Positions 21,148 to 59,224 of a DNA stretch of 64,000 nucleotides are shown piece by piece. The position numbers and the translations under genes are program-made. The notes under the pieces are model-generated. The model was given only the letters and a program-made list of their open reading frames with translations. It ran no database searches and was not told the DNA's origin. Origin of the DNA: a virus (taxonomy: Duplodnaviria > Caudoviricetes); the IMG/VR virus record IMGVR_UViG_3300022377_000098, positions 8,270-72,269 of that record; one strand, 5' to 3'. How positions within the stretch are numbered: position 1 is the stretch's first letter; each line of letters opens with the position of its first letter.

Positions 21148-23544
21148 TTAATTCCACCCCGTCATAACGCCACCATTAAAGTTTATTGTTACGGTACCGC
21201 CATCAGATTTTGTCAGTGGCCCGATTGAGCCATTCCAGCCATTTGTACCGTTAATCGTAAGCCCACTACAATCTACTGTGCCACTCGTGGCAATCAATCC
21301 GTTTGCGTGCAGTTCATTCGCTTTCAGCGCGCCCATGATTACCTGTGCATAGCTGCCACTGTTACTAAAATATGTGCCATGCCCGCTTGTGGGCTGAAAG
21401 CACATATCATATGTGCCCGTTTCAGGGTTGCTGCTCACGCCCAAATGTCCCAGCTTAGAGCCGTTATAGTAAAAGTCAAATCCGTCACCAGTAAACTGTA
21501 CGGATTGGCTTGAACCGTCCTTGTGGTTGAACGCGTACACAATGGCATCTGAACTCTGCGTAATCGCTGTGCTAACAACCGAATTAACTTCTGTCCTCGA
21601 TACCTTGCTGCTGATTTCATCCGCCTGCTGTGTAATCTGCGACTGCAAACCGCCCACCTTGTCATTGACGGATGACGTGATAGAGTCGGCAGTCATTTTT
21701 ATTTCTGCGTTGGTTTTCGTTTCGGAGTTCGTCACAGACAAATCAATCGTGTTGTACAGTTGCTTAATGTCGCTCATTTCGTCACCGTGTGACACCGTGC
21801 TTTCCAGCCCGTCAGCAAGCTTCTGAATTTTGATGCGCAGTTCTTCAGATTTCGTGTTCAGCGCTTGTAATTCATCCCACAGCTTTTCGGATTCAGAATA
21901 AAAATCGGAGGAATTTTCGGCCTGCGACTTTGCTTCACAGGAGATTGCTTCGGCAGAGTTCAGCTTATAAGTCAGATTGGTAATGACTGACTTGCGTCCC
22001 TCAATGTCCACAATGTCCCCCGCTTCCAGTGCAGGGTTGCTGTAAATCGTTGCGCTGTATGGCGTAATGGTGTTGCCTATCAGGTGTGGAGCTATATTGT
22101 CCACAATCTGCTGCACATTTGCCACATCACGGTGCTGCCGGACTGTTACCAGTCTGCCGGGTAAATCCGAAAAATCAGCAGACGTCAGCAGCTTGCCTTT
22201 GTACTCAATCTTTGCCGCATCAATTCCAGCAAAGCAACTATCCGACTGCAAGCGTGCAATGTCGTTATACAACACATCTACCAGCGCATTTATGCACGTC
22301 CATGCGTTTGTGCCGCTTTCCTTGTCCGTCTTTTTTGTGATATATCCTAAGTCAGCGGTTAAGTCCGCTTCTTCCTGTGCCATGCTTGACTGCGCAGTTT
22401 CGTAATAACTGGTAATGTACTTTGTCAATCCGTCTGGCAAGTCCTGCTTTGGCTCAAATGCGGCCGTTGCAACAGTTTTCGCACTGTCCTTTAGGTATGC
22501 AATGCAGGACTTCACATCTGAATCATACTGTTTTGCGCTGTCCACAAAGGTTTTACGCTCCGCGTCCGTGGGATTGTATGTACCGCCGTACCGGCTGCAA
22601 TAGTTTTGCAGTTCCACGCACTGCGATTTGATTCCCGCCAGTCGCGCAGGTACATCCGTATCCTTGCTTTTGATGGCGGAGTTGATGTTGACCGCCCATT
22701 CGTCGCAAATAACCTGTTCATATATTGCAGCTTGCAGTAGCTTATTGTCAGAATCTTTCAGGGTAATTACATACCCATCGTTGCCGGACTTCGCGTCAAC
22801 ATTTTTACTGTCAATCTTAACGCCGGTCACGGTAATATTGTCTTTTGCAGGCTCATACTTCTGGTAACTGCTGATATTGTACGGTGCGGTTGAATAGTCA
22901 AACCACTTGAATTCAAGTTCTCCGTCCGCATTGCATTGCGCATAACATCCTGCCAACTGTGCAATGTTCGCAATCACATCGTGATATGTGGAAGATGAAT
23001 ACTGCGGGTCTCTGAAAATCTGATAATCACTATTATGAAAAGTTTTAGTTTTCAGTGAAATTCCGCACTTGTCACAAACCTGCTGTGCAAGGTTTCCCAA
23101 TGTGACCGGATAAGTAACATCCATGTCAACTTTGCTGTCTGACTTAGAGAGATTTCCATATGCAGAAACCGTTATTGTATTGCGACCCTTGTAGTCATAT
23201 GCGTTGTATACACCTTGCTTCACCCATTCTACCGTGTCGCCGGTATAATCGCGCTTGACAACCATGCCAATGTACACGGTAATGCTTGCTTTGCAGAAAT
23301 CGCACTGCGTAAACTTTCCGTCAAAGTTATTCAGCATGATTGTACATAAGTCTGTAATCGCGGAGCCTACTGTATAATCAGACTTTGAAGAAACTCCGCT
23401 ATCAATGGTTACACTGCCTTGCATGATGTCTGCATCTTTTAGCGGGAATTCTGTTCCGTTTGCCAACTTCACATCTGCTTTGAAGTGGAATTCTCTGCCA
23501 TTTAGCAGAACAAATTTCTAAAAATCATCCGATACTGGTTTCAA
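21148..23544 (-). CDS. tail protein/baseplate hub; in-frame TAG at codon 9
   Basis: AAGGTGG RBS, TTG start, MKPVSDDF*KFV...KADVKLANG continuous with ORF-track call. Confidence 0.8.
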
Positions 23545-23557: not shown

Positions 23558-23935
23558 TTACACTTCGACAAAGTCAAATTTTATGTTTGAAATCATGGAC
23601 TGGCTAAACCGCCCATTTTGCTTCACAAAATAATTGACTGGCGCGCTTCTGTCACCCACATAAAATGTTGCTGTGCGGTATCCTCCAAGCCTTATGTCCG
23701 GATATGTCAGCAGGAATGTTTCTGGCTGAACGTGCTGTAACAGCACAGATGCTCTTGCTTCCGTCATAGGAGCCCATGTGCAAGTAAGCTTCACCTACTG
23801 TGCCACTCTATCTTTGTGCATTAACCCCTACTGGTCGCGCCCTGCTTCTGAATCTGATATGTCTTGCAATGCCCATTCCATGGACTGCGGGGTTTCAATG
23901 GTGTTTCCGTTTACCATCAATGTTGACTGTGCCAT
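23558..23935 (-). CDS. distal-tail-like protein (DUF6711-like); TAG at codons 36 and 47
   Basis: MAQSTLMVNG...QDISDSEAGRDQ*GLMHKDRVAQ*VKLTCTW. Confidence 0.8.
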
Positions 23936-24365: not shown

Positions 24366-27300
24366 TTAATGAGTTGGAACGTAACGTCTACTATCGATTG
24401 CTTTGTAATTTTGAGTTGAATCGTAAATGCTCTTGCCGTCAAGGTCTGCTGTAACATGAAGTTGAATTGGTTTTCCGCTGTTACTTTGCAGAATTGCAAG
24501 GATTGCGCCAACCTGATTTACAAGTTCATTCTGATTGGATGAATTTGCTGAATTGCCATTTGTCTGCTGTTCAGCAATGCCCTGTGCAATCTCTGCATAG
24601 GACTCTTTACGCATTGGTAAAGCGGCTTCTTTTCCTTTTTCACCTATGCCTATCAGCGTAGGTGCGTCATAGATGCCTCCATTTGCGTTCCAACCGCCCC
24701 AATCGATGTTTCCGATACCTTTTGCGTATCCGTGTCCTTGTCCCCACACGCCGTCAGGAGAACCATAACGCGCCCATGTGTAACGGATGGACGCGAGGAT
24801 GTTTGATAACGGGTCAAGAATGTTCGTGTTGTATCCGGGCAAAGCGTAAGTCGAAAATGTTTCAGGGATTAATTGCATCAAGCCTTTAGACGGATGCCCA
24901 GCGTAATAATTTACGTCATGCAGGTCTGACGGGTCGACCTGCCCACTGGATTCAGTGTTCATCTGTGCCAGCAGCAAATCCACATTGTGCGTGGAATAAT
25001 GTCCAGTCATCATAAGCGCCTTAGATGCAAGGCTTCTCCACTGTTCAACTCCAGAGCCAACATTTGCAACCGCACTCATTGCAACTTCCATTGCACTCTT
25101 GAAGTTCGGAATGCCATAGCCAAGAATGTTTCCAGAGTTTGAATTGCGATGCTTTCTGAATACACCCTCTGCGCCATCGCTTCCACTTGTGTTGCCCTCA
25201 ATCGTATTTACAAGACCGCTTGCAATGCTCTCAACGATGCCGATATGGTCGGCGGTACCGTTCTTGTCCCAATCATAGAAAATCAAATCGCCGCGTGCAG
25301 GATTGTTAGTCCAGCGGTTGGCTGACTTGAAATGGCTCATGGAATCCTCGCAGGAAGCAGATAGATATTCATCCACTCCCGCACGTTTCAAACACCAAGA
25401 CACGAACATATCGCACCAAGCGGCACCGTTCATTCCGAAGTCGCGCCCAAACTTTGTGAAGTCTGCATGACCGGCATTGGCTGCTTTATCGTCCAGACTG
25501 CTGTTTGAACCTTTTTCGAGATAGCCCAATTCCGATTCTGCAATCTTTAGGAATGCTTCCACGGTGCCGTTTCCGGGTGCTGTAAACTCTGCGAGTTGCT
25601 TTTTGATGAAGTCAACGGAATGACTTGTCAAGAACTGTACTGTGCTCTTTTCCATCTCGTTCCATGGGAAGTTAATGGATTGCATAGCCGTGTTTTTGTC
25701 TATAGCGGCGTGTAAGAGCATTTCGGGTTTGTCTAGGTAATTCCATATGTTTGTAGAAAAAGTGTCTAGAACGGCCTTAGAAGTGCCGAAAAAGTCGCCT
25801 ATACCGTTCGCATAGTGTGGGAACATCTGCTTTGTCTGTTTTGCAGGCAGTACAGACGAACCGGCAGGCAAATCAGGAATCAGCACATTGCGCCCTTGCG
25901 GAATAAATGCGTGACCGTTTGGGAGCTGAACCATTTCGCGATAAGTAGAGCCGGATTGGTCGTTGACAAGTGCTGCTCCGCCCGGATGATGCCCTGAACC
26001 ATAGGCATAGTGTTTGATGCTGATTGGCTTTACAGTTGCTTTAGAACCGACCGCAGACAGCACAGAGTTGATGCCCGCCACTACACCATTAATTGCGCCA
26101 CCAATTTTATCAGCAACATTGTTGTTGATGGCTTTGGAATGCTGATTCACAATGTTGTCAGAATCGCTCATGTAAATCTGTGCCGACTGTTTCACTTTAC
26201 TGAAATAAGTACTTGCATCAGATGAAATTGCTTTGAATTTACCGGAAGCATTGCTGTACATGCTGGAAGCTTTGGAACTCACATCACGTTCAGCAGACGC
26301 AAAGTTGCTCTGTTCAAAAGACTTTGCAGCAGAGAAATTTGCATTTGCACTTTTGGAAATCCCACTGAACTTTCCATCAATGAATGTGCTAATCCCATTC
26401 CACTTTGTGTTTGTGTCTGTCTGGATAGTGGCAGATGTATCAGAAACATTTGCACTGATTCCTTTCAGAAGCGTAGGCACAGAATTGTTCAGGCTTGCAG
26501 AGATTTCCTGATACTTTTTTGCGGTATAGTCTGTTTCGTCTGAAACAATTTTCTTGCGGGTGTCGGCAGAAGTGCGAAGATTGTCTGTAATCTGCTTAAC
26601 CTTTGCACCGGATTCTCCCAAAATGCTGGAATCGGTCTTTCCATTAACATTGAACACATTAGCAATAACTGTGCTTCCACTTTCGCCAGACGTTTTAGAA
26701 TTTTCCACAATTCCCTTTGCGAGAGCGGAAAACGTGCTGCTGTTCAATGGTAAAATAGCTTCGGAACCGGCCTCACCGACAACAGATAAAATTGGAGATG
26801 TTGTAATGCCACCCCTTGCTGAAAATGCAACACCAAGCAATTTAAGGATTTTGGGTATTGCCCCACTTATTAATCCTGCTCCACCAAGAGCGCCAGCTAA
26901 ATCAGAACCGGCTTTTGGCGGGTTTGTCTTTTGTATGGCTGCAGTCTGCTTTCCAGCCGAGTTCCACGCTTGACTAAACCAGTTTCCCACACTTTGCAGT
27001 GCTTTCCCAATGTTCTGAAATACAGTTGAAAAAGCAGTAAGCTGATACTGACAAGTCTTTTGCGTGTTGGTCTGCAGATTTGTTCCAAACTTTGCAAAAT
27101 CGTCTGATATGCCTTTCAGCTTTGCGTTAACCCGGTTGTGAGTTTCTCCGAGATAATATGATGCACTTGTGAGCACAGCTAACCATGTTGTTTTTGCCAA
27201 AGTCGGTATGCTTTTTGCGATATCCTGAAAACTCTGATTTGCGCCTTTTGAAAAGGCACTTACCTTATTGCCTGTTTGAGAATTGAGTTTTGATGACGTT

Positions 27301-29480
27301 TGAGAAAGTACGCTTTGCCACATTGCACTTGTAGCAGCAGTGACAGTACTTTCCATTCCACTAAATATCGATTCTGAATTTGCACTAAATCCAGATAACT
27401 TTTTTTGTGCTGACTGTGACTTTAGGCTCGTTTCAGAGTCAATATGGCTCCACGACTGCGCCCATGATGCTGCCATTGCAGTACCTGCCGCTCCAAATGA
27501 AACCTGCATATTGGTTGATAGAGAATTTACTTTTTCTTCTACAGGCTCAAATGATGGCAGAAATAAAGAAGAATCGAGCGCTGGAATTACTGCCGGCTGT
27601 ACTTCTGGAGCGGAAATTGGCTGCTGATACAAAGCTTTACCATATAGAAAATAATCAAGCACAACCGCAGGAGCGATCAGAGGTTCAAATACTGGTGCTG
27701 CTACAGGCTCCTGATACCTGCCTTTTGACTTCTGGTAATCTCCATCATCCAGAGGCGGCACATACACTGGAGGAATTTCAAGGCTAGGAACCGGAATCTG
27801 CTGAACTGCTTTTGCAACAGCTTCTGCTCCCTCTTTAACCTTTTGAGTAACGGTTTCAACGCTTTTCTTAGTTGCCTTTTCTTCCTTATCCCTTTTGTCG
27901 TCAATCTTGTCAAAAACACCTTTAATGTTCTTGAAAAGGTCGTTAAAATTCCAGTTTGACTTTGGAGTAGGAATTGTTTTGAACATTTTACTATAGTCAG
28001 GGTCACTACTCTTTTTACTGTCAGAATCAGAGGACTCTTTTTTATTCAGAACATTCAGTTCATCAAACCCCATAACCGTTCTCTGGAGTTCTTTTACTTT
28101 CTTCTTTGCCTTATCAGCACTGTCGCCTGTTTTGTCAAGTGAAGCAGCATAGTCAACATTCGTCTTTGTTGCAATAGTGACAGTCTTTTGCCCTGTAATC
28201 TGTGCAATGAAAATTGCAAGCTTATTAGCCGCTGCCGCAATCCCGTCTACAATATTAGTTATTGCCGGAGAAATTGCTTTCAATATTGCTAAAAGCGGTG
28301 CTGCAATCGCATTTTTTAGGTAGGTGAAACTGCTCATATACTTTGACAAAGTATCATTTGCGTCTTTATTACCTAGCGCAGCGTCTTTGAACCCTTCTGT
28401 AATACTGTTAAGTACGCCCTGAAACGCAGTGAATGCAATCATTCCAGTCATCATGTGCTTGATAATCGTTAGAGTGCTTTGGCCTGCGCCTTTTGCTTTG
28501 TTCCCCGCTCTTTCTGATTTATTACCAAACTTATCCATAGCAGAACCAGCTTCATTCGTAGTGGAAGCAATCTGCTCCATCTTCTCCGCAACTTTCTGCT
28601 GCTTTGCGGTTAGGCTGTTCATGGAATTTCCAGCCTTTAATACTCTGCTTTCCAGCTTTAAGTATTCCTCACTGCCAACGCCCTTTGAAGCGCCTGCTTC
28701 TTGTGCCTTTACTTTCAGATTTTGGTACGCAGTGGCGGCATTGTCAATCTGTGCAGCAAGTGACCGCAACTGTGCTTCAAGATTTGCAAATTGTGCGGCA
28801 GAATCACCAGAAATACCATTCATAGAGGATTTCAGACGTTCAATATACTGCGTCACTTCCTCAATGGCTTTTGTAGAATGGCTCGTGTTAACTTGCGCTT
28901 GCGTAGGCTGGCTCATAGCCTTTCTCAAATCAGAAACGTTCGGTTGCATAGAATGGTTTGCACTCACAGATTCACTTGCTTGACGCTGCAACGCAGACTG
29001 TGCAGCTTCGGTTGACATTTTATCAGTGCCACCATTGACATATCTGTCTACGGCTTTTGCCGCTAAATCAGTAATGGAATTGTCAGAATCCGCCATAAAT
29101 TTTTTAGCCTGCGCCGTCTTTTCAAGAGCAGCAGACAATTTTTCTGCTTGAATCTGTGAGCGTTGCATGGACACGTTTGCACGGTCAAGGCGCGCCTGAT
29201 ACATAGCCATGTTTGATTCTGCTTTTTTGGTGGCCTGCACATTTTTGTTTGTAACGTCTGCCCCCTCTTTTTCTGTATCATAGAACTTTTTAAGAGAAGC
29301 AAACGCTTTTGAAGATGATGCAATTTTGTCCATTTCTGCCGTAAAAGATTTCAGTGCAGGAATTGACTTAGTTAATGATGATTGGAAAGACTCAATCTTA
29401 GCAATCAGTTTGTCTAATGCACTATTTGCTTTTGTGGCAGAAGCCTATATTTCAATGTCAAGGCTGTTATCTTCTCCCAT
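24366..29480 (-). CDS. tape measure protein with C-terminal CHAP and SLT domains; TAG at codon 12
   Basis: MGEDNSLDIEI*ASATKAN...; WCDMFVSWC/HIGIVE CHAP; TESSG/GLMQL SLT. Confidence 0.9.
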
Positions 29481-29966: not shown

Positions 29967-30302
29967 TTACGCTGTTTTCTTCGGAGCCACGAGAAATGTC
30001 TTGCTCTTTGCAGACTTCCCGCCCTCGGTAAAAACCTCCATGAAAGGCTCTACCAGAGCACTGTAAATTTCATCCACTCCGAATTCTTCGATTGCCTTAT
30101 CGGAAATTTCAACAGCTTCGGAATAGCTGATATTCGGGTGGAACTTACCAAGCCCGCAGTAAAACAGTTTGTCGGCAGAAGTGTAGATTTTGTCCTACAG
30201 GTCGGAAACATTGCCGCCGATGCTCTCAAACTTACGAACAGAAGCGCGGTCATAGAACAGTTTGTAGGTCTTTTCACCCACATTTACATCAAAAGAATTC
30301 AT
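29967..30302 (-). CDS. tail assembly chaperone; TAG at codon 36
   Basis: MNSFDVNVGEKTYKLFYDRASVRKFE...SDL*DKIY. Confidence 0.78.
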
Positions 30303-30344: not shown

Positions 30345-30782
30345 TTAAACAGTAGCAATCATTGTGCTTGTGTCTGCTACATGGTCGTGACTGGAAACGT
30401 TGACTGCCAGAGAGCACTTGCCTGCCTGCCCAGCAGAATAACCACTAATCCATGTTGCACCGGTTCCGACAAAGTGTTCGCCGCTGCCATCCTGATAGAC
30501 AATGAGAAAATCCTTTGGAATTTTCAAACTTACATATCCGCTTACAGCCGTATAGTTTGCTTCGGTGTGGTTGTACTCGAAATCATATGTAGGCGTGTCG
30601 GGACGGTCGGAAACGTACTGCTTGTATTCACTGTCCAATGTGGTAACTTCCAGTTTGTTAGGAGTGCCACCGGTGTCAGGAGTCTTAACAACGGATACCA
30701 GCTTTTCATACTAGCCAGCATCGTTCTTTTTCATCAGTTTAATGCCAATATCAGTAAGTGCAATAACATTTGCATCAGCCAT
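30345..30782 (-). CDS. major tail protein; TAG at codon 24
   Basis: KNDAG*YEKLV...PDTGGTPNKLEVTTLDS. Confidence 0.82.
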
Positions 30783-30799: not shown

Positions 30800-31198
30800 T
30801 TACGAATAGATTTTGTTTCGGTAAGCGTCATACCGGCATGAATACCGCATAACGTACCTATAAATTGTCGTGTCTGAAACGTTCTGCATTGTGCCGGAAA
30901 ACTCGCACTTCATGTGCAAGTCATTTTCCAGAGAATCAGCAATAGCAGAACGGATTTTCATAGCTGTGGTTTCAGCAGTGCCGCCTTTAGTGTAAATCTC
31001 AATTTGGCAGGTAAATGAATACTTGCGTTCTCCATAATCAAGCGTGTGCTCAATTTCAGGGAAGTCAACATTCTGCACTGTGACATACGGGAATTGTGTG
31101 GACTGATTCTGAAAAGGCTTTACAACCAGTGCAGCAGGACATACAGAAAGTACCGCTTTCTTGACATATGTATAAACTGCATTTGTAAGGTCAACCAT
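30800..31198 (-). CDS. tail terminator-like protein
   Basis: FPYVTVQN, position before major tail protein. Confidence 0.65.
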   Translation of the reverse strand: MVDLTNAVYTYVKKAVLSVCPAALVVKPFQNQSTQFPYVTVQNVDFPEIEHTLDYGERKYSFTCQIEIYTKGGTAETTAMKIRSAIADSLENDLHMKCEFSGTMQNVSDTTIYRYVMRYSCRYDAYRNKIYS

Positions 31199-31682
31199 TC
31201 ACAATCACTCTCAATTCCTTATCGGTTAGTTCTTTTGCACGTTGTTTCAAATACTGTGCCGTCTTGTAAACAAAAGCGTTAGCAGGTTGTCCTTGCGTCC
31301 AACGTAGTTTCTGCGCCTTTTCATCAAAGTACCACCATCCGGCAGTGCCATGACTGTTTGAATCATACACCCATCCGGGAGCAGGATTAGGATGTGGACT
31401 GGTTGCGCCTTTAATCCCGGTTCCATACTCAACAAAGATAGCGTAGTCTGAACCAACCGAAATTCTTCCAGTACAGGTTGATTCATCAAACGTGCTGGAA
31501 ATGCTGTCTGACAGTTCCCCCGTAGAGCGTTTGACGACTGACTTCATGTAATCGCGCCCCTCTTGCGTAAGCTGCGAAATCACGCTTGCAAGGGTAGAAT
31601 CAACCTTGGAATTCAGACTTTCCAGTTGCTTTTTTGCTTCTTCCACAGACTATGGAGAAAGTGCATCAAAAGAGATTTTCAT
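31191..31682 (-). CDS. HK97 gp10-like neck protein; TAG at codon 11
   Basis: MKISFDALSP*SVEEA; YAIFVEYGTG, TQGQPANAFVY. Confidence 0.8.
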
Positions 31683-32083
31683 GTTTCTGTGCCTGCGACC
31701 TTTTTAATGTACACAGCATACTGCCAACCAGTGAAAATTACCTGTTTGACTGTATAGTTGTTGTTCATCGGGTGCTCTGCATCATCGTCCCGCAAGTTTC
31801 CGTTTGGTGTGACTCCGTACCATGCCGCTTCAAATTCCTCTGGAGAATACCCCTCAACATCAAACGGTGTGAACACGCATTTCTGCATTTTGGAAACGTC
31901 AGCGCCGTACTCTTGAATGTCTGCCGTATCGGTTATTGGCTGCACGTTCACATGGAATTCGGCAGGTTCGTCATAGCAGGAAATCATGTTCCCTGTTTCG
32001 AGCCCATTTTCGTCTTTTTCAGGAACAGGCGGCAGTTTCTTCGCAAACCAGATTGACTTTTTATCTTTGTTCAGGCTTCTCAT
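31679..32083 (-). CDS. head-closure protein
   Basis: position in neck module, 134 aa. Confidence 0.6.
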   Translation of the reverse strand: MRSLNKDKKSIWFAKKLPPVPEKDENGLETGNMISCYDEPAEFHVNVQPITDTADIQEYGADVSKMQKCVFTPFDVEGYSPEEFEAAWYGVTPNGNLRDDDAEHPMNNNYTVKQVIFTGWQYAVYIKKVAGTET

Positions 32084-32400
32084 GAAACCATCACCGCCAT
32101 AGGAATGACTTCTTTCAGCAGGGAATCAGGAATATCAGCATTTTCATAAGAGCGGTTGACTCCGTTCTCATTGTGAGCCGTTTCCCCCTCCGCTCCTTGC
32201 TTGTTATAAAGAAAAATTGCAATCTGAATTTGCAGTTCGTTATATTGGCTTTCCAGTGGAGCGTCAGGCGGTGACCGTCTGCGCTCTTTAATTCTCGACT
32301 CTGCCCGGTCAAGCATAAGGTTCAGCTTTTCATCCTAGGAAGTGTCGATTACTGGAATATCAAGCCATACTTTCAGCTAATCAAGCTGTGTAGTAGTCAT
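32080..32400 (-). CDS. head-tail connector; TAG at codons 8 and 22
   Basis: MTTTQLD*LKVWLDIPVIDTS*DEKLNLML; YNKQGAEGETAHNENGVNRSY. Confidence 0.85.
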
Positions 32401-32557: not shown

Positions 32558-33637
32558 TCAAGCCACCTTTGCAACATAGACTTCGTCCATACGCTCATAG
32601 GACGGCGCAAGGATTTCGGAAGCGGTGGTAATGGTCTGGTACGGCGCTTCTTTTGTGGTACTTACGGTGATGGTGATACCTGTGTTGAAGATAGCAAGCT
32701 GGTTGCCAGCCTGACGTGCAGAGCGTTCCTCCGGTGTCATGCCATACCACATAGTGCCAACGGAGCCGCCAGCGGGCAGGAAAGTAACATAACCATCCGG
32801 CATAAACGGATGTGCAGTGCCATCAATGCCCTTGTACATCTTATCGTAGACAATAATATCAATGCCGCACTTGATACGTAAGAACTGTGCAAGCAGATTA
32901 TCATCCATGAAGATGTTTGCAGTAGCGTTCTGCGCCAGAATTGCAGACTTAATCTGTGCATTCTCCGGCAGATTATCAAACGTTGCCTGTGACATAATGG
33001 CAGTGGACAGCACTGTTCCGTTCTCTTTCAGAGCATTGCGCTTGATGGTACGAATGTCAGATAGCGGCTTAGAATTAGCCGTATCACTCCACAGGTTTGT
33101 GCCGGTCAAAGCAGTGTAGTGCTTTGCTTTCCATGTGCCGTCAGCATCATAGTTCATGGTGTAACTTGCACCATCTTTTCCAGTCAAATTGATAATGGGA
33201 CTTCCGTCAACTGGTGCAAGCAGACTGAATGCCATAATTTCAGGCACTACCATAGCACCATCACGCAAAGTACCAGCATCATCAAAGATGCGGTTCAAAA
33301 CGTCCTGCACAAACGGGTCGTTTGCATCACGATTCTGCACTTCCATCAAATCCTGAATGTCCTTTTCTTTGACAATCATAGACTCACGGAAGAATGCCAG
33401 TTCCGTTTCAGAACGGCTCACACCTGCACGGTCGCGGAATGTCGGCTTTGCATCAAAGCTAGACAGATTGATTGCAACCGGAAGTCCCTTTGTGCCTTTC
33501 AGCCAAGACACAGTTAGCCCGGTTTTCTTTCGCGGTGCGAAGAAAGCACTGCCAAGATACGGGATTTCATTGGAATACGCAGTTGTCCAATCGTTTGCAA
33601 CTGCATTTGCCGTAAAAATGTCCTAAAGTTCAGCCAT
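32558..33637 (-). CDS. major capsid protein (capsid E family); TAG at codon 5
   Basis: GGAGG RBS, MAEL*DIFTANAVA...LSSFDAKPTFRDR. Confidence 0.88.
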
Positions 33638-34764: not shown

Positions 34765-35151
34765 TCACGAATTTAAATAGTCTGCGATTTCAGACAAACT
34801 CTTGAAATATTTTCCACCATTTCGCTGAACCATAAGGCCAACCCTATCAAGGGATTTATACTGTCCAATGCTGAACTTCAAATCTGGTTCATCAATAAAG
34901 GCGAATACGGTCTTTTCAGGGCGTTTGTTGCTATCGTCAACGACTTCTGCAATGCTGTAAACTCCCTGCATTCGTGGAGTGATAACGTACAAGCAAAAAT
35001 CATCATTTGTGCGCTCCTGCAATTCCTACTGATAGCATTCTTCTGTCCAGTCAGGTACAACCGGATTGAAATAATCAATCTACAGCATTGAAATCAGTTT
35101 TTTACGCCATTTGCTTTCTGCACAGGTGCCGCCTAAAAACACTTTCTACAT
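34765..35151 (-). CDS. nucleoside 2-deoxyribosyltransferase-like protein; TAG at codons 2, 24, 42
   Basis: M*KVFLGGTC...WR...L*IDYFNPVVPDW...YSIAEVVDDSNKRPEKT. Confidence 0.8.
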
Positions 35152-37059: not shown

Positions 37060-38560
37060 CTGATTCCTCATTTCCTGTAGGAATTGTGTTGTTTGTAGGC
37101 GCAAGCATAGCCGCCGCTTCATCCGTTTTCTGCTTCCAATATTCTTCTCCACGCTTTGCCATTTCGTTAGGCATTTCTGTAAAGTTGGAAAGCTCAATCG
37201 CATCTGTAGGAGTAAGAACTTTAGTCGCCATCAAAGTTGAAAGTGTCTGCGACTTGTTAAGCATATTGTTTGTGCGGTTACGGACAAAGTTTACCTCAAC
37301 ATCCATCGGCTTGATGTCAATGTTGCTGAATCGCTTTAAAATCTTGCAAACCATACGGAGCATTTGCTTTTCTGACTTCTTGAAATTTCTCTGCTTACAC
37401 CGTGCTACAACTTCAAGGCTCTGGTATCCGTCACGCAGATAAACTGCATCCCCTGTGTCGCCAGTGCCGCCGCCCTTTGCCTTACGGTCAGGAATTCCGG
37501 TAATGGCGTACACATAGTCAATCAAAGTCTGTGCAAGCGTTTCAGCTTCGTTCTGATTGACGCCGGAATTTACATACTTCACGTCTGCTGGATTCTGCTG
37601 GTCGGAAGTCATTTCAAGAGCCATGCCTTGCTTCATCTTTTCAAAATCAGAAGTCCCACCATTCTCTTTTGCCGTTTTCAAGTGGCAGTTCACAAACACA
37701 AGCAGGCTGTTTACAAGCTGTTCAACACTGTTTACACGGTCACTGTGCAGCTTGTTCAACGCGTCAAGAATTGTCAACACGGATTCAAAGTCGCCCATAC
37801 GGCACTGATTGTTTTTGTACTCCACAATTGGAACAGCACCAAGCAAATGTGCTTTTGGATATCCGCTTACAAGGTCTTTTGCAGTAATAGTTGTCTGTAC
37901 TCCAGCGACTTCATACTGATATTGGTATGTGTTGTCATACACCGTGTACACTCTGCCGGTTGCGTTTCCGTAATCATCTAAAATATCAGAGAACGTAACG
38001 CCAAGTACAGGCTTTTTTACAGAATCAGTGGAATAAATGACGAATGTTGAACGTGCATCAAGTGTCGGAATCTCAAATGGTGCTTCATCCTCATCGCATT
38101 TTTCATCCACCGCAACAAGACGATATCCAACGCCACAAACGGAAGCACTTTCGCCAACGTCCATGTCGTTTGCGGCTTTATCTTCGCTGTCCATATACTC
38201 ATTTAGAGAGTCAATATCGCTGCGCTCTTTATCGCTACCGCCTTTTGAAGTGTACTTGATTGGCTCGCCGAGGAAATAGCCGTTTGCGTTACGCACAATA
38301 GCCAGAGCGTTGTTAATCACGATGCGGTTATTGATTTCCGGCCTAACCTTTTTTTCGCGGTAAATGATTGGCTGATTGCCTTTGTAGTAATTATACAGAT
38401 ATTCAATTTCCTGCTGATTATTTGCAAACTGTACCATAGCGCCGTTTACGATTCCCGGTATGGTTTCTTCACTGATTTCATTTGAAGTGCATAATTCCTA
38501 TCTACCTAAAAATGTATGGTCTTCACCATACCATGCAGTGGATAGAATATCTTCAATCAT
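36959..38560 (-). CDS. SPP1-type portal protein; TAG at codon 21
   Basis: MIEDIL...FLGR*ELCTS...YLYNYYKGNQ, NGYFLGEP. Confidence 0.88.
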
Positions 38561-38794: not shown

Positions 38795-38870
38795 TGGTGC
38801 GCCATCTGCGGCTCGAACGCAGGCCACCCGGATTTAGAGTCCGGTGCTCTTCCAACTAAGTTAATGGCGC
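38795..38870 (-). tRNA. amber suppressor tRNA(CUA), tRNA-Lys-like body (element 2)
   Basis: 76 nt GCGCCAT...CCGGA-CT-CTA-AA-TCCGG...GTTCGAGC...ATGGCGC-A-CCA. Confidence 0.92.
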
Positions 38871-39057
38871 ATATAATAGCGGTATGGCATAATTGGACGG
38901 CGCAAAATTGCGCTGTCTAAATTCTTCACTCAATCCAGATTTGGTGTCAGTGATTTTTGATAATTATTTTAAACTGGTCGATTTCGACCACTTTAAATTC
39001 AGAGTACCTATCATGGTGAGAATTATTAATAGACGCGATAGGCTTTCCTAAAGACTT

Positions 39058-39273: not shown

Positions 39274-39361
39274 TGGCGGAAGATAGAGGATTCGAACTCC
39301 TGTTGCGTTACCGCTTACCTGCTTTCAAGGCAGGCTCTTTAAACCGCTCGGACAATCTTCC
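39274..39361 (-). tRNA. tRNA-Ser(TGA)
   Basis: 88 nt, long variable arm, CCTGC-CT-TGA-AA-GCAGG. Confidence 0.92.
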
Positions 39362-39412
39362 ACAAAGATACCCGCCATTGTGCACATTGTTAAGAGGTGA
39401 GGTGGGTTTGTT

Positions 39413-39488
39413 TGGATGCGGATGCAGGATTCGAACCTGCGACTTCTAACTCATGGGGCTAGCGAGCTGACCACTGCTCTAATCCGCA
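39413..39488 (-). tRNA. tRNA-Met(CAT), initiator-like D arm
   Basis: GAGCAGTGGTCAGCTC, CTAGC-CC-CAT-GA-GTTAG, CCA. Confidence 0.85.
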
Positions 39489-40719: not shown

Positions 40720-43458
40720 TCACAGAGGAATTTGACTTCTATCTATCATCCGTATGCTGTAGGCAGTCAGATTCTTTACAAGGTTGCTCAACATGGACAG
40801 TGCATCCGGTGCATCATCATGCTTTGCTTTTCCGTTCGTGGTAAAACTGCACACGTTGCGCATGAAAGCCTTATATTCTCTGCTCTGCTTTGACGGTTGA
40901 AGGAAAACGAAGTGCTTTATGATGTAGTCCGACTCTGTAACAATACGTGTGATTTTATTGGTAGATGAAAAGAACGTCCTGACGGATGTATTGCCGTTGC
41001 CTTGTGAAATCATGTCACTAACGCTTTCGGCATAGTACCCGCCACCGTTGTTCACCTCAACATCAAGCCGTGATACTTTATTCCTGACGCATAGTTTTGC
41101 AACCATAGGCTTTGTGACATCTGGCAAACCGTTATTGAATACCAAATCGCGTATGTACACCGTATCGCCGTAAACATAGCCACAAATTGCTGCCACATAG
41201 TCTTTACCCTGATTTTTAGAGTCGCAGACCGCCACAATGGAATCAGGTTTTGCATCTGGCGGCAGTTTGCCATCAAAATAGTGGAAATCGTCCTCATGAT
41301 AAAGCACGCCCTCACGCTCTATTGGCCTTTGCTGATAGATTGCACCCCATGAGATATCGTCCATATTGTCACGGATATCCTCAAAATAGTCCCGTGAGAA
41401 TCCAACATCATAATCATAGTCAAAATTTGAACTTCCATCCTCATTTAGTGCAGGGATACGCACGAACTTGCTATATCCGTCACCCTCATACCTTGATTCA
41501 AGCCGCCCCAGCGGGTCATATACAGACCAACGAGTGCCAATAATCAACATCTTGCAGCCCATTTTCATACGGCTCATAAGGTCATTCGTGAACTTATACC
41601 ATAGCGTGTCCATGCGGTCACGGTTCATTGCTTCCTCAATACCGGAAACCATATCATCCGCATACAGCAAGCTTTCACAACGTGTGGCGCCGGTCAAGCC
41701 GCCATCAATAGAGCGGCAAGTAAGCGTTTTAAACCGGTGCTGATTCCGTAAGTCGAGCGTTTCCTCTTTTGAGTTTGTGTTTACCAGCTTTGAACCCGGA
41801 AAGATGTCTTTGTAAGTGTATTCATCATCTTTAATAAGCTGCAGCACGCCAGTGTAGAAAGAATTTGTCAGCTTGTCTGCATAAGCGGATGCCAAGCAAG
41901 GCATATCAGGATGTTTTCCAATCACCCATGCCATGAAAAATATACCTAGAGTGGTATTGTGCGTAATGATGTAATCATCCGTCACATAAAGCTGTGAGGG
42001 GTCGTCAACCATAATGCACTGGCACTCTTGTTTTCCAACATATTCCACCCTGTCAATGAATTTTTTGAATACTTTCCGCTTAGGAGAAAACTTATTTGCT
42101 TTTCGTGGCAAGTAAAACGGATGTGCAGAGCTGTTGAATTCAATGACAATTCTGTACACCAACTTGCCAAATACTTTTTCCCCTGCTTGATTTCTGTAAT
42201 AATTTCCGTGCTTTTCTTTTACGTTTGCTTTGCCACCTAAAGAACGCACCAATTCCAACATCCCATCTCTCAACATAGGAGAAACGGTTGTGTATTCTAT
42301 ATCATTTCCGTCTGTATAACCATCTGTATCAAGCAACCCGCGTAAAAGTTCCCACCGACTCTATGTATCCGCATATTGATAGTCTTGCGGGATAAACTTT
42401 GTTTCGCTGTTTTTGCCTATGAGTCCATAATGTAAAAGTGCTTGTTGCGTTTTGGACTTTATCATATATCCGTGGCTGTCACGAACAGTGTTATCCACTT
42501 TGCAAATATTGTATCCATATTTTGAAGTCCTTTTGTGTAGCGTATCCCCCTCTGGAAGAAGGCTCTTTAACCTTTCAACGAGTTCCGGGTCTGCGCTTGT
42601 AATATCAAGGTTTCCACTAGTAAGGCTTCCATCCCCAAGCAAAGCGCCAACAATATACGGATGAAGCATAAGATCTCTATGATGAAATTCAACAGGGCTT
42701 ACGTAATCAATGGAATAGTTATTACGTTTGCCATGTTCAACTCGCAAGTTTTCCATCATATCTTGAAGCTGAATATCTCTGTACTTATTCCCTCTAACCC
42801 TATCATCACGGGTCTGTACGTGCCAAATGTGTTCTTTGCAACATTCCGTGGATGTTCCATCGTTAAACACAACACGGTATACGTCTTTTACGCCTTGAGG
42901 AAATACGCCGATAACATTGCATTCGTTTCCAGAGCCGGATATAATTCTATCTCCGACTTCTACATTACCCATCTTTTTGAATCCGGTTGGTGTCAACACC
43001 TTGCAATACAAAGGCTGTGCTTTGCCAGCGCCCGGAGGAACTGAAAGCCCAAACCGCTTTAGTTTCCCATCTTCTAAGTTTTGCAAGTCTTGCACGATTG
43101 GCCGCAGCACACGCTCACGCGGCGGGTAGAATTTCTTGTCAGGTTCCCTGTTCCTCTCCATATAAATCAAGTAGGAGTGGAAGTCATACGGAGCTGCAAA
43201 AAGAAATGTCTACCAATATTTATCTGTGTAGTTCTGCATCTGCACCGGTTTTAGTCCCTTTGGATTGCTCAAAATGATGTTTAGCGCTTTTCGCAGCCCC
43301 TCATTCTCCAACAGTGCCGCAGGCATATTATTTTCTTTGTGATAAATTGACCGCAACGCTTCTCGCTTCAATGCCAATTCAGGCGCATCCATATCGTACA
43401 TATGATATTTGACGTCATGTACCAGTTGCTTCTTTGCCCTTGTATAATCTACTGCCAT
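40720..43458 (-). CDS. terL: terminase large subunit with intein; TAG at codons 83 and 366
   Basis: three ORF-track pieces in one frame joined by TAG; PPGAGK|intein|TT Walker A, YADD, KHDDAPDALS. Confidence 0.9.
41956..43020 (-). mobile_element. class 3-like intein with LAGLIDADG endonuclease (355 aa)
   Basis: starts AQPL, EHIW, ALLGDGS and GLLDTDG motifs, CIMV, ends ITHN before Thr. Confidence 0.88.
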
Positions 43459-43507
43459 AAAAAAAGAACGCCTCCATATTGGTAGGCGCTCTAGGCACTC
43501 TATTTTT

Positions 43508-43750
43508 CTATTTCTTTCTTCCAAGTGGTTCATCCAGTATATCAAATATTGAGCAGCCGAGTGCTTTTGCTACTTTCAGCAAGGATGATATTGACGGTTC
43601 ACACACGCCGCACTCAATTTTTGCAAACCATTGTCTTGTAACTCCGATTTTTTCAGCGGCTTCCCTGCCACTCATTCCAGCCTTTTCTCTAAGCTGTTTT
43701 ACTTTAAGCCCTATCGCTTTGGACAAGAATTCGCTCCCTGCTTGTTTCAT
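43508..43750 (-). CDS. XRE-family HTH (ends at TAG)
   Basis: MSGREAAEKIGVTRQWFAKIECG. Confidence 0.75.
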   Translation of the reverse strand: MKQAGSEFLSKAIGLKVKQLREKAGMSGREAAEKIGVTRQWFAKIECGVCEPSISSLLKVAKALGCSIFDILDEPLGRKK

Positions 43751-44031
43751 AGTTGCAACTCCATTCTTCTTGAATTATATCATGTTAATTTGGAGTTGTC
43801 AACTAATAAGTGTTGCTTATTTTATGAATTTGAAACGGTTATATGAATATATATGCATAAATTTATGAATAATTGTATTTTGCGTTTGTTTTTTGAGGGT
43901 GGTGAGGGACGTCCTCCCGCCGAAAGAATAGGCTTGAAATAGGGGTACGCCCTGCATCTGTCAGTTGAATGTGTGCGTGCGACTGCTCTGTACCGGGCAA
44001 AAAAATAATTGAAAAAATATGCAAAAATCTA

Positions 44032-44060
44032 TTGACAACCAATGAGTTGACGACTATAAT
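44032..44060 (+). promoter_or_regulatory. sigmaA promoter
   Basis: TTGACA-17-TATAAT. Confidence 0.75.
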
Positions 44061-44136
44061 AAATCATATAATCAAGACATACAAAAGCAGCTGCCCCGGA
44101 AGAACCGGAACGGCACAACTGAAAGGCGGTATTGAT

Positions 44137-44625
44137 ATGACATTGATTAACGCGTTGGAAGAGCTGAAAGCGAATGGTGTTACAAGGCTGGTTGGCATGG
44201 CAGGGATAACCGACATTGACACATACATTGAGCATGCCACAGAGAACCATAAGAACGCCGTAACGTACGCCGCCAAGGGTATACAGACTTGGCAGTACGA
44301 GCTTGACCATGAGGACGATAGCTACATAGTAGATATGGCAGACGGACATCACATCATTGCCACACACTACGGTACATTTGACATGGCAACATACAGCGAC
44401 TACGAAACCGAAGAAGAAATGAATACGGCATTTGACGCATGGGAAATCGCGCAGCAGGCCGCAGAAATTGCAGATGAGAAAGTAAAGCAAGGCAGTTCGC
44501 TCCCCCGTGAAGCATGGATACTCGTTGCCACTGCCGAACTCACTGCGGTAAGAAATGCCGCTGCAGCAGAGTTTGAACGCACATACTGCAAAAAGCAGCT
44601 GCAAAGCGTGCAACGTGCGCAATAA
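44137..44625 (+). CDS. hypothetical protein
   Basis: downstream of strong promoter with RBS. Confidence 0.6.
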   Translation: MTLINALEELKANGVTRLVGMAGITDIDTYIEHATENHKNAVTYAAKGIQTWQYELDHEDDSYIVDMADGHHIIATHYGTFDMATYSDYETEEEMNTAFDAWEIAQQAAEIADEKVKQGSSLPREAWILVATAELTAVRNAAAAEFERTYCKKQLQSVQRAQ

Positions 44626-44659
44626 TGCAATGGCGCGGTAGCCCAGTGGAGGCGATGCA

Positions 44660-45121
44660 ATGGGCGGCGTATTGCTATTAGTAATAGCACGGATGCTGCT
44701 GGGACTGATTGACAGCATCCAGCAGGAGCACAAGCAGCGCAAACAAAAGCGCGGGGAAAAGAGACAGCATAAGGAGAACGGAACTCAACAATTAGGGCTG
44801 TGCAGCACAATGTACCGTGATATTGCAAATGATGCAGTAGACACAATGCAAGCGCTAATACAGTCACAACGACAGCCGGACGACAAACCGGCAGGAGGTA
44901 ACACAATGAGGACAGCTATCGCAACGATTGACACAGATGCAGGCACAATGACTATCTACTATAACGGCAAGGGCGAGGCACTCACAGCGGAGACAGCAGA
45001 CGGCAACACAGTAGATGAGTGTGAGTACACAGCACAGAGCTTGCAGGATGCGCGTGACGCGGCACGCATGATGTGGGGATATGATGGCGGCAATGTATGG
45101 GGGTATCAGGAGATTGCATAA
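44660..45121 (+). CDS. hypothetical protein (internal RBS and ATG at 44906)
   Basis: N-half homologous to 8293-8511. Confidence 0.45.
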   Translation: MGGVLLLVIARMLLGLIDSIQQEHKQRKQKRGEKRQHKENGTQQLGLCSTMYRDIANDAVDTMQALIQSQRQPDDKPAGGNTMRTAIATIDTDAGTMTIYYNGKGEALTAETADGNTVDECEYTAQSLQDARDAARMMWGYDGGNVWGYQEIA

Positions 45122-45454: not shown

Positions 45455-46227
45455 GATAAACACCCCCTGTGGGTGCTTTTTTATGCCCAAATGTTGGTGT
45501 ATGAGGACGGCGCAAAATTGCGCAGTCATACATTTAGCAGCCGCTGCAGGCTGCTTTTTTATTGCCTAACCGTCTGCCCGTGTTTTGCTATGCTTTAATA
45601 CAATGCCCTGCAATCGATTCTAAGCCGCTTTTATTTGAGTGCGTAAAGTTAATTATGAGCGTCAAAACGTTGCACAGCGGCTTTGCAAGCCTGCTTTATT
45701 CGTGCCGTGTAGCGTTGTCCACATCTCATTCAGCCGAATGCAACTTCATTTTGTCTGTAAACTTTCTCTTATAATTCAAATTCTCATTCCAATTTTCAAA
45801 AATTTTTCGCTGAATTTTTTCTTTCACAGCGGTTCCTCTTACTGCGATTTGCTCTTACTGCAAAAAGCATGCTTACTTTCTCCTGCATATTCATTCGTAC
45901 TGGAAAGCACACTTATTTCTCAATGCATACAGGCTTACTGCCTGAAAAGTCTTGAAAGTGGCTTATTTACTGGGCTTTTCTAATTATACAAAATGAGCAT
46001 TTTGGATAATATGCAGATTATATACAGAAAAAGCCGCCCAAACAGGCGGTTTTATTCATTTATGCAGTTTTTCCTAGCAAGTTAAGGATTCAGCAACTTA
46101 CTGCATCCAAAAAATCTATGCAGCGGTATACATTTTCCCCTCCTCATGCTCTTTCCCTTTACAATGTTGCGCGTACGCATATATTACTATATATAATATA
46201 TATACAGTAATAGTGCAAGTTCTTGCA

Positions 46228-50187: not shown

Positions 50188-50591
50188 TGTCCCTCCTTTC
50201 TATAATTATCAATCGCTTTCTGTGCTGCTTCCTCAAAGTTTGGGAAAGGCTTTGAAAGCTGCACCAGCAAAATGATTTTATCTCCTGTGTCCGGCACAAT
50301 TTGAACCAGTTTCATCTTTACTGTGCTTGCCAATGTTGCGACTATGCTTTCATCTGCGCAATTTGCCATCACCAGATAAATATGCATCCGGTTTTTACGC
50401 ATAAAAGAAACCGATGTTTCGTTGAAAGCATTTTTATCCATCACAGCCAAATATTGTCCGTTCCCTTTTGGACTCTTGGCCATTTTCACGTCGAAAAGGA
50501 TTACTGGATTTCCGAACTTTTTGAACCTTTTCTTCTTGCAAAACTCATAAGAAATATCCGTGTAATCATCCCCATAATTATTTTTCTACAT
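50184..50591 (-). CDS. hypothetical protein; ATG TAG AAA start (TAG at codon 2)
   Basis: in frame with ORF-track 50184-50489, directly after promoter copy 3. Confidence 0.6.
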
Positions 50592-50595
50592 ATAT

Positions 50596-51831: not shown

Positions 51832-51903
51832 TATTATTTATTACCCCCAAAATGTTTTAGTACACATTCATGTGCGCTGTGTGTTAGGTAATGCGCGCAT
51901 GAG

Positions 51904-52134
51904 CTATTCAACTTCATCCGACTCTTTTTCGATTGGCATTACTTTGTCGAGATACCACTTCGCTTTTTCAAGGTCTTGCGTACCACCTTTGTCTTTCCAT
52001 CGAAAAAGATACTTGATAGCGTTACCGATGCAGAATCCCTCAAATCCATTACAATGTGCCACTGCTGATTCAATAGCATCAATGCACTCGACTTTTCCTG
52101 CATTGTATCGGTCTGGATGATTTACTTCGCTCAT
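51904..52134 (-). CDS. DUF3310-like protein
   Basis: VNHPDRY, ECID, GNAIKYLFR, DLEKAKWYL. Confidence 0.8.
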   Translation of the reverse strand: MSEVNHPDRYNAGKVECIDAIESAVAHCNGFEGFCIGNAIKYLFRWKDKGGTQDLEKAKWYLDKVMPIEKESDEVE

Positions 52135-52734
52135 TTGTCCATCACCTCATAATTTTCTTTTGGAAGCAGGTCTCCCAATCTCAATTCTTCATGGCACACC
52201 GTGTCAACGTGCTCCCAAAATATTTCATCTTCCTGCCGCTCATCTGCCATCTGCACGAACTCGTTCAAAATGGTTCTGCATTTCTCTCCGTCAAACTCAT
52301 ACTTATCACGCAGAGCCACGCAGAACATTTTCATAGTGCGTCTGGCCGTGTCCTGCTTAATCTGTTCTGCACGCTCGTTTACGTACTTTTCACACTCGCG
52401 TGAAATTGTGGATTTCAGCTGCTTTGACGGTCTGTTACATATGTTTGCTTTCAATGCTTTATCACCTACTTTTTATTTGCATTTTATGTGCTTGCCGTGG
52501 CAGCCCAGTGCGCGCCGCTGGCAGAGATAGCAGGCGTTGTCCGGCGCGGTCATGGGGTAGGCTCCTTTTTAGCCTCTCTGAATCCCAAGAAATACGCAGT
52601 TGAATCTTTAACTGTTTCATAATTAGCGCAGCTTGAAGCATCTGTGCTTTCTAAGTTTCCGCAATTCCACGCAGAGCAAGCGTTTATATGTATACATTCG
52701 GAACACGTTTTCAGCGGAATGTGCTTTTTCCTAT

Positions 52735-53182: not shown

Positions 53183-53446
53183 CTATCGTAACTCGTTGTA
53201 AATTATTATGCTTAACTTTTCTCCCAGCCAATTCAAACCTTCGTGTGTAAGCCAGCAACTACCTTTCCCATCATCTGCTGCATAACCAGCGTCAACCATC
53301 ACTTTCCACGCTTCATCTAACTTTTCTCCGCAATCAAAGTAATTCCGGTACGGCTTGTAAAACGCTTTGCCATGCCGATGATAAGGCTTCTTATAGTCAA
53401 GTCCGATGCAGTGCTTTGCAAGTTCAATGTACTCACTTTCAGGCAT
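53183..53446 (-). CDS. hypothetical protein; TAG end may be read through to TGA at 53165
   Basis: KHCIGLDYKKPY..YRNYF; readthrough gives EETNE overlapping the next ATG. Confidence 0.6.
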   Translation of the reverse strand: MPESEYIELAKHCIGLDYKKPYHRHGKAFYKPYRNYFDCGEKLDEAWKVMVDAGYAADDGKGSCWLTHEGLNWLGEKLSIIIYNELR

Positions 53447-58362: not shown

Positions 58363-58809
58363 TCAGTACGGCAGATTTGGTGAGCCAACATAATCAGGAC
58401 TATCAAAGTCAGGCACGATTTCTGCGCCCTGCCTGTCTGTAAGAATCTGCTTTACGGAAAACGTGTTGAAATACCGATTTCCGTATTTGTGCACATTGTA
58501 GTCGCACAGTGCATCAAACCATCCGCCAACTTTGAATGTGCTGCTGATAACTTCCGCAACGTCATTCCATGCAGTACAATACAGGTGCGCACCGGGAAAG
58601 CGTTCTTTCGTTTCTGGATTTACCTTTCCGAAAGAAGAAACGATAAAGCTAATGCTTTTTCTCCCGCTGTCGTACTCTTTCATCTCTTTCATCTCGAAAA
58701 TCTTTCCATGAACAATGCAGGGGATGCCTGCCGCCGAGCCGTCATACATGACTTTTCCGTTATTGGTAATCGTCATATGCCAACGCGCTTTTTTCTTTAT
58801 GTCAGCCAT
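58363..58809 (-). CDS. OB-fold/SSB-like protein
   Basis: LYCTAWND; acidic NLPY tail. Confidence 0.45.
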   Translation of the reverse strand: MADIKKKARWHMTITNNGKVMYDGSAAGIPCIVHGKIFEMKEMKEYDSGRKSISFIVSSFGKVNPETKERFPGAHLYCTAWNDVAEVISSTFKVGGWFDALCDYNVHKYGNRYFNTFSVKQILTDRQGAEIVPDFDSPDYVGSPNLPY

Positions 58810-59224
58810 TATTAACCTCCGTAATCTCAACTTTGACTTCTGCCACTTCTCCGTATCGCTTCTGTACCGAAAGATTGACTACCTGTGTATCATCTGTATA
58901 AGCGACACCATTCAAAGCGTCCAGAACAATTTTTGCGATATTGTCCGCATCTGGTTTCTTCGTGGGGTAAATGCACCCATTCAAAGCATCCGCTCTCCTT
59001 GCCTTTGAAAACGACTTAGGAATTCCGAATACCGATTCAATGCAGACTGTGACAGGCTTTTTGTCCGTGAAAGCAGGCTGTGCACCATACTTTAATTGAT
59101 AAGCTGTAACAACTTGCTTCTCATAATTTACCGTCTATGCAGGCGTATAAGCGTGTCCACCTCGTGTAAAACGCGGTCTGCCTTTTCCAACCGGCTCACC
59201 AGAAACAGCAAAAGAAACGCTCAT
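58802..59224 (-). CDS. rusA: RusA Holliday junction resolvase; TAG at codon 30
   Basis: GKGRPRF..AYTPA*TVNYE...KKPDADNIAK.VLDALNGVAYTDDTQV. Confidence 0.9.

Follow-up and report, generated by a model that had tools for sequence, protein, structure and literature searches.

A phage-borne derivative of tRNA-Lys(CUU), a likely suppressor inserting lysine at amber codons near the start of virion genes in a temperate Clostridia phage

Only two types of stop codon reassignment, TAG to Gln and TGA to Trp, were observed in phages by Borges et al. (10.1101/2021.08.26.457843). Phages that use code 15 and carry suppressor tRNAs have been described (crAss-like, Lak, Garnet, Amethyst, Topaz prophages; 10.1101/2021.08.26.457843; PMC9523058), and the phage reported here resembles them in encoding a tRNA(CUA), in having in-frame TAG codons in structural and late genes, and in the gating of late genes that can be proposed on this basis. 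Like the code 15 prophages, it is temperate, and its host presumably belongs to the standard-code Firmicutes. Unlike the code 15 phages, it carries a Lys-derived tRNA, its TAG codons occupy positions that fit Lys, and these codons are few, with one to three per gene, almost all of them located in the first 50 codons. Synthetic amber suppressors combining the same tRNA-Lys body, A73, and a CUA anticodon date from 1990 and insert Lys, according to the account given in PMC9976931. In comparison to these synthetic molecules, the tRNA described here is a natural, phage-borne derivative of Clostridia tRNA-Lys(CUU) whose D stem displays additional conserved changes (G10A and C13U) and for which the phage genome itself provides target codons. 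In the ciliate Oligohymenophorea sp. PL0344, UAA is read as Lys and UAG as Glu (PMC10553269, as cited in PMC11687900). As presented there, that code likewise involves conversion of a stop codon to lysine by a mutated suppressor of the tRNA-Lys type, but it is eukaryotic and nuclear, concerns UAA, extends to the whole genome, and has no proposed regulatory role. The literature searched contained no phage or bacterial case of UAG = Lys, the ciliate UAA being the only stop-to-Lys assignment that we met. The association of a phage suppressor tRNA with amber codons in late genes is known; the origin of the tRNA and the proposed amino acid assignment are new.

The window, i.e., the whole stretch of 64,000 nucleotides that was analyzed, corresponds to bases 8270 to 72269 of a 72,269-bp IMG/VR provirus record and contains two phage-like elements. 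The first element (window positions ~1 to 12,300 plus an integrase gene at 13046 to 14299) comprises HK97-type head genes, a PF03354 terminase, and the first of two CUA tRNA genes. The second, larger element, on the minus strand, is a temperate siphovirus of gut-type Clostridia with an amidase endolysin, tail genes, a CHAP tape measure, a capsid-E-type head, an SPP1-type portal, a T7-like terminase, and a replication/recombination module. The five tRNA genes that ARAGORN identified in the window lie without exception on the minus strand: two with a CTA anticodon plus Gly(TCC), Ser(TGA), and Met(CAT). The tRNA genes considered here are the following.

38795 to 38870, minus strand: amber suppressor tRNA(CUA), derived from tRNA-Lys(CUU) (ARAGORN, Rfam, relatives, and anticodon-masked tree)
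39274 to 39488, minus strand: tRNA-Ser(UGA) and tRNA-Met(CAU), just upstream of the suppressor and in the same orientation (ARAGORN and Rfam)
6945 to 7020, minus strand: second, homologous tRNA(CUA), in the neighboring phage-like element (ARAGORN, Rfam, and tree)

The suppressor gene is located in the packaging/head operon of the siphovirus, 400 nt downstream of the tRNA-Ser and tRNA-Met genes, with the terminase/antirepressor genes on one side and the portal gene on the other. The neighboring element has a copy of the tRNA of its own even though its head genes do not require one: under code 11, its genes for the capsid, protease, portal, terminase, and tape measure are uninterrupted, and TAG serves as the stop codon of its chaperone and Rha genes. 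Additional features were observed in the vicinity of the suppressor gene. A 63-bp stretch just upstream (38895 to 38957) is 89% identical to a portion of the rha gene of the other element (7730 to 7792). A 32- to 36-bp palindrome at 38966 to 39002 matches one located inside kilA-N (14599 to 14634), and a 19-bp piece recurs at 45505 to 45523. Between the tRNA-Met and tRNA-Ser genes, the abiF RNA motif RF03085 gave a subthreshold match (39370 to 39406, minus strand; 32.2 bits versus a gathering threshold of 37; E = 0.0015).

The tRNA encoded at 38795 to 38870 is 76 nt long and scored 56.1 bits against RF00005 (E = 2e-9) over model positions 1 to 71 of 71; it exceeds the gathering threshold of 29 bits and forms the full cloverleaf, the two features on which membership in that family was judged. 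Its acceptor stem (GCGCCAU/AUGGCGC) consists of seven Watson-Crick pairs, U8 and A9 are present, and the D loop (AGUUGGAA), which includes G18 and G19, is followed by GAGC. The anticodon stem (CCGGA/UCCGG) carries the loop CU-CUA-AA, the variable loop (GUGGC) contains 5 nt, the T arm reads CUGCG-UUCGAGC-CGCAG, and the 3' end is formed by A73 and an encoded CCA. ARAGORN, Rfam, and direct reading of the sequence agree on the cloverleaf, anticodon loop, acceptor stem, A73, and D loop that the preliminary description had put forward. The bases engaged in tertiary interactions are all intact in the suppressor tRNA copies. The D stem is unusual, since it is weakened by an A10.C25 mismatch and a U13.G22 pair on either side of C11-G24 and U12-A23. 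The mismatch, initially noticed as common to the two CUA tRNAs of the window, was also found in the copy of a related phage. We propose that the conserved weakening of the D stem, including the loss of G10, might help decoding or deter GlnRS, and that the succession A36-A37-A38 would presumably make the tRNA a substrate of MiaA.

tRNA-Pyl (pylT) likewise reads UAG, and pyrrolysine is a derivative of lysine, but the "tRNA-Pyl" label that ARAGORN applies is a mere name for any CUA tRNA. The special architecture of tRNA-Pyl (3-nt variable loop, 6-bp anticodon stem, small D loop devoid of G18 and G19, and no TPsiC consensus) is absent here, and this identity was ruled out on the basis of the length of the variable loop, the 5-bp anticodon stem, the presence of G18 and G19, and the T loop UUCGAGC. 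A Glu identity was likewise rejected based on the architecture of the tRNA.

BLAST comparison of the 76 nt with 400 Clostridia genomes revealed matches in 74 of these, mostly full length, and ARAGORN was used to extract the tRNAs of the 30 best loci along with those of one reference Eubacteriales genome. Among the best 30 loci, the top matches were all tRNA-Lys(CTT), with 82 to 86% identity, A73 and CCA in every case, and an identical acceptor stem in most. The next isotypes were Met (72%) and Phe (71%), and identity to tRNA-Gln was at most 63%. In an anticodon-masked tree, the three suppressors compared formed a single clade (support of 0.97) inside tRNA-Lys(CUU). Both the comparison with other isotypes and the phylogeny therefore agree with the tRNA-Lys scaffold that had been recognized in the preliminary description, and the one substitution that separates Lys(CUU) from CUA can be identified as U36A. 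The other changes with respect to host-type tRNA-Lys are G10A and C13U, both of which weaken the D stem, plus drift in the stems. The molecule is not a Lys isoacceptor, which would have the anticodon YUU and read AAR, since its CUA anticodon makes it a suppressor derivative; it belongs to the tRNA-Lys lineage by descent, as judged from its nearest relatives and its position in the masked tree. The LysRS identity elements A73, U35, and A31-U39 are all present. A suppressor of the tRNA-Gln type would be recognized by U1-A72, G73, and a Gln-type D arm; comparison with the extracted Clostridia tRNA-Gln genes bore out the reported lack of U1-A72, the suppressor having G1-C72 along with A73. At the level of sequence, these results establish that the suppressor arose from the tRNA-Lys(CUU) lineage of Clostridia through replacement of anticodon base U36 by A.

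Three copies of the suppressor were compared, the two copies of the window and one copy present in a relative of the siphovirus (IMGVR_UViG_3300045596_000317, designated G001), which is 80 to 91% identical to the window phage at the nucleotide level. Compensatory double changes were found between copies at three pairs of the anticodon and T stems (30-40, 50-64, and 52-62), and the A31-U39 pair, U35, and A73 were invariant in the three copies. The occurrence of compensatory changes in the two diverged copies argues that both have been kept functional. Relative G001 carries the same TAG codons in addition to the homologous CUA tRNA, and this is also the case for G403, which is nearly identical to G001, the two being assemblies from sister samples. 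Exact-pattern scans of viral contigs for the suppressor tRNA gave no match, and a looser tRNA pattern recovered only G001 and G403 from these contigs. No match was obtained by megablast against GenBank phages. Genome contigs searched with the portal yielded a single distant prophage, in an uncultured Eubacteriales MAG, and when the capsid protein was the sole query for related loci, nothing beyond the relatives already known was recovered. In the collections searched, the recoding system was found in only two independent phage genomes. Nineteen metagenome contigs contained CUA tRNAs with a similar D arm of the Lys/Phe type; these loci were not assigned to the suppressor family, none being close to it (58 to 80% identity). 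Several of these environmental contigs carry two different CUA tRNAs in tandem. The G001 prophage adjoins a tRNA-Leu(CAG) gene (contig L081, positions 532 to 618), which is likely the attachment site, and a 365-residue open reading frame beside it (654 to 1751) is probably the integrase gene. The host flank of G001 was absent from the five genomes with the closest tRNA-Lys.

In-frame TAG codons were located in the following genes of the window.

40723 to 43458, minus strand: TerL, TAG at codon 83 (43210-43212) and codon 366 (42361-42363); Pfam PF22530 and PF14528
36962 to 38560, minus strand: SPP1-type portal, TAG at codon 21 (38498-38500); PF05133; ribosome-binding site (RBS) and start present
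34768 to 35151, minus strand: nucleoside 2-deoxyribosyltransferase-like protein (Ndt), TAG at codons 2, 24, and 42 (35146, 35080, and 35026); PF15891
32561 to 33637, minus strand: major capsid protein, TAG at codon 5 (33623-33625); PF03864; RBS and start present, conserved in G001
32083 to 32400, minus strand: gp6-like head-tail connector, TAG at codons 8 and 22 (32377 and 32335); PF05135 over residues 4 to 94
31194 to 31682, minus strand: HK97-gp10-like protein, TAG at codon 11 (31650-31652)
30348 to 30782, minus strand: probable major tail protein, TAG at codon 24 (30711-30713); RBS and start present, conserved in G001
29970 to 30302, minus strand: tail assembly chaperone, TAG at codon 36 (30195-30197); third-position mismatch periodicity
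24369 to 29480, minus strand: tape measure protein, TAG at codon 12 (29445-29447)
23561 to 23935, minus strand: DUF6711 distal-tail-like protein, TAG at codons 36 and 47 (23828 and 23795)
21151 to 23544, minus strand: tail hub, TAG at codon 9 (23518-23520); RBS and TTG start; thin evidence from homologs
58805 to 59224, minus strand: RusA resolvase, TAG at codon 30 (59135-59137); PF05866 matched at full length across the TAG

A credible RBS and start codon lie ahead of every TAG in this list, and the TAG is conserved in G001 wherever the genomes could be compared. Under code 11, TerL is split into three in-frame pieces, which upon read-through form a full-length homolog of proteins of ~555 residues; TerL homologs align across the first TAG and intein-bearing homologs across the second. 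Alignments with homologs of other listed genes likewise continue through the TAG positions, and Pfam models also span several of the in-frame TAGs. Mismatches between the window and G001 concentrate at third codon positions around the TAGs, which are the sole disruptions in the genes that contain them. Comparison of the TerL exteins of the window and G001 gave a dS of 0.71 and a dN/dS of 0.04, indicating that this is a working gene. The late genes that were examined end in TAA or TGA, and none ends in TAG. This comparative evidence shows that the TAGs of the listed genes are to be read as sense codons. Three early or small genes do end in TAG (53183-53446, 51871-52146, and 43418-43774, minus strand), with the next stop codon located 5, 11, and ~30 sense codons further, respectively; their products would gain short C-terminal tails if the suppressor were active. 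The presence of TAG at the end of a few early genes suggests that decoding may be partial or timed.

Other TAGs were discarded as sense codons: those associated with the gene at 62572-63069 lie ahead of its real start, those in the frame at 43822-44784 belong to a frame that is not protein-like, and another TAG precedes the start at 50205. A possible ATG-TAG-AAA start was observed at 50586-50594 (minus strand), ahead of an open reading frame of 135 residues and with no clear RBS; this Met-TAG-Lys opening is the same as that of the Ndt-like gene. The TerL gene of the window is interrupted by a LAGLIDADG intein-like insert of 355 residues (41956-43020), which directly follows the Walker-A Lys and contains the TAG at codon 366. 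The insert starts with Ala (AQPLY...), ends with ...THN, and is followed by T. G001 TerL is devoid of this insert and has TAG as the Lys codon at precisely this junction.

The amino acid encoded by TAG was investigated by alignment with homologs. TerL of G001 reads PPGSG-TAG-ST and the window has AAA at this position, which is that of the Walker-A Lys conserved in 95 of 96 homologs. G403 and G001 differ by a single A/T difference in 19,171 bp, at portal codon 311, which is TAG in G403 (contig L169, position 8803) and AAG in both G001 and the window. Lys was the only residue found at chaperone codon 36 (four of four homologs) and the most common residue at connector codon 8, Ndt codons 2 and 24, RusA codon 30 (K4 Q2 A D S), and codon 45 of G001 Ndt; the closest homologs also have Lys at portal codon 21 and major tail protein codon 24. 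Several sites were occupied mostly by other residues, including TerL codon 83 (Gln in 23 of 50 homologs, its commonest residue), intein codon 366 (mostly Glu or Asp), gp10-like codon 11 (mostly Ser), capsid codon 5 (Thr, Ser, or Phe), and Ndt codon 42, at which an alignment with 120 homologs revealed Glu, Arg, or Gln and never Lys. The columns were combined in a Codetta-like likelihood based on observed frequencies and BLOSUM62 pseudocounts, for 17 sites of TerL, portal, capsid, connector, tail genes, and RusA in three genomes (the phage and its two close relatives). Lys obtained the highest log likelihood (-37.1), ahead of Glu (-47.9), Arg (-50.5), and Gln (-52.7), i.e., with leads of 10.8 nats over Glu and 15.6 nats over Gln; the lead of Lys was 6.9 nats upon removal of the Walker-A site. 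In control draws of 17 random sense codon sites from the same genes, the right residue was recovered at a frequency of at least 92%, except for Cys and Met. The margin obtained for TAG was less than half of that of ordinary AAA/AAG codons (~25 nats), because several sites are mostly occupied by other residues in homologs. This smaller margin fits young codons at weakly conserved N-terminal positions, and, once TAG is read as Lys, single-base changes from CAG, GAG, and TCG are ordinary substitutions to Lys. In these alignments, Lys is shown to be the residue that best fits the in-frame TAGs, which supports the same assignment independently of the ancestry of the tRNA.

Mischarging of the suppressor with Gln, by GlnRS or by GluRS and GatCAB, would make this phage a user of code 15 (TAG = Gln), and we consider it improbable. 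The published phage TAG reassignments are all to Gln (10.1101/2021.08.26.457843), and CUA anticodons are prone to recognition by GlnRS in E. coli (PMC1483225). Besides TerL codon 83, the closest Ndt homologs have Gln at codons 42 and 45. The phage does combine in-frame TAGs with a CUA tRNA in the manner of code 15 phages, but its TAGs do not align with Gln, which is the most frequent residue at just one site out of 17 and has the likelihood deficit reported above. In addition, the TerL gene with a TAG at the Walker-A position in G001 is under strong purifying selection. Replacement of the Walker-A lysine by Gln is expected to inactivate a P-loop ATPase. The features of the tRNA itself also argue against Gln: G1-C72 in place of U1-A72, A73, A10, A31-U39, and the low identity to Clostridia tRNA-Gln. 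The A31-U39 pair is preferred by E. coli LysRS and disfavored by GlnRS (PMC1483225). U35 and A73 are Lys determinants, and amber suppressors containing U35 insert Lys; replacement of A73 by G73 turns a tRNA-Lys amber suppressor into a partly Gln-inserting tRNA, whereas A73 keeps Lys insertion (PMC9976931).

Searches of the 72-kb record for LysRS-type synthetase domains of class II or class I and for the RF-1 domain were negative, in keeping with the initial observation that the window contains no visible synthetase or release factor gene. Since the record encodes neither, we infer that charging with lysine is performed by the LysRS of the host, on the basis of the retained identity elements U35, A73, and A31-U39. 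U36 is also a LysRS determinant (PMC9976931), and its replacement by A implies that charging may be inefficient.

The distribution of the TAG codons suggests a role for lysine insertion at these positions. Fifteen of the 17 TAGs of the window are located within the first 50 codons of their genes versus 4.8 expected, and none of 200,000 simulations reached 15 (P below 1e-5; pooled binomial, 9e-13). This clustering suggests a translational lock on late genes rather than neutral recoding. Without the suppressor, the proteins encoded by TAG-containing genes would end after 1 to 46 residues. A search for a dedicated promoter of the suppressor gene detected only weak consensus matches, and the location of the gene inside the late operon suggests that the tRNA is produced with the late transcripts. 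In the model that we propose, transcription of the late operon would be followed by processing of the suppressor tRNA, with its CCA already encoded, and by its charging with lysine by the host LysRS, the acceptor stem, A73, C34, U35, and A31-U39 of the parental tRNA having been kept. The charged tRNA would then insert Lys at UAG in the terminase, portal, capsid, connector, tail, and RusA genes, thereby acting as a key that licenses translation of the virion genes, nearly all UAGs being in the first 50 codons. The timing of expression and the gating role are deduced from gene order and codon position and should be regarded as putative.

Decoding might also be ambiguous or inefficient, with partial read-through or a mixture containing Lys, so that the TAGs would mainly attenuate the output of late proteins. 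The termination of a few early genes by TAG, the loss of one LysRS determinant through U36A (PMC9976931), the lack of an encoded RF1 countermeasure, and the location of most TAG sites at weakly conserved N-terminal positions are all in line with attenuation. We nonetheless rate this explanation as marginally less probable than charging with Gln, because TerL, portal, capsid, and tape measure, which are essential and encoded by single-copy genes, can be produced only by read-through, a specific residue is required at the Walker-A TAG, and no late gene examined ends in TAG. Finally, it is very improbable that the tRNA is a decayed, nonfunctional copy of a host tRNA-Lys and that the TAG-containing genes are pseudogenes of defective prophages, as might be argued from the D-stem mismatch and from the fact that the three records are all metagenomic proviruses with no evidence of activity, since two stems display compensatory changes, the bases for tertiary interactions are all intact, the TAGs are the sole disruptions of their genes and cluster nonrandomly in the first 50 codons, and they are conserved across ~15% nucleotide divergence, with mismatches biased toward third positions and a dN/dS of 0.04. 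Thus, we consider it very likely that the gene at 38795 to 38870 encodes a functional amber suppressor that is derived from tRNA-Lys(CUU), is charged with Lys, and licenses virion genes. With somewhat less assurance, we also regard as likely the broader proposal of a natural UAG = Lys code variant in temperate Clostridia phages, in which a captured host tRNA-Lys(CUU), converted to tRNA-Lys(CUA), would be used as an N-terminal "amber lock," with virion genes translated only in the presence of the tRNA of the phage.

The pattern of phage recoding known so far, limited to Gln and Trp, has been attributed to the ease with which two host synthetases, GlnRS and TrpRS, can be hijacked. If the lysine assignment is true, LysRS can be recruited for phage recoding as well, and UAG would have acquired a stop-to-Lys assignment that is absent from published code tables and from the literature searched. 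Gene callers relying on code 11, 4, or 15 would mistranslate such phages, for example by placing Gln at the Walker-A lysine. Genetic work on Gram-positive bacteria could also make use of this tRNA as a natural amber suppressor that inserts Lys. With one tRNA and ~17 codons, mostly at gene starts, the phage would offer a clean model for the onset of a code change, and the same small system would serve as a model for translational gating of the lytic program.
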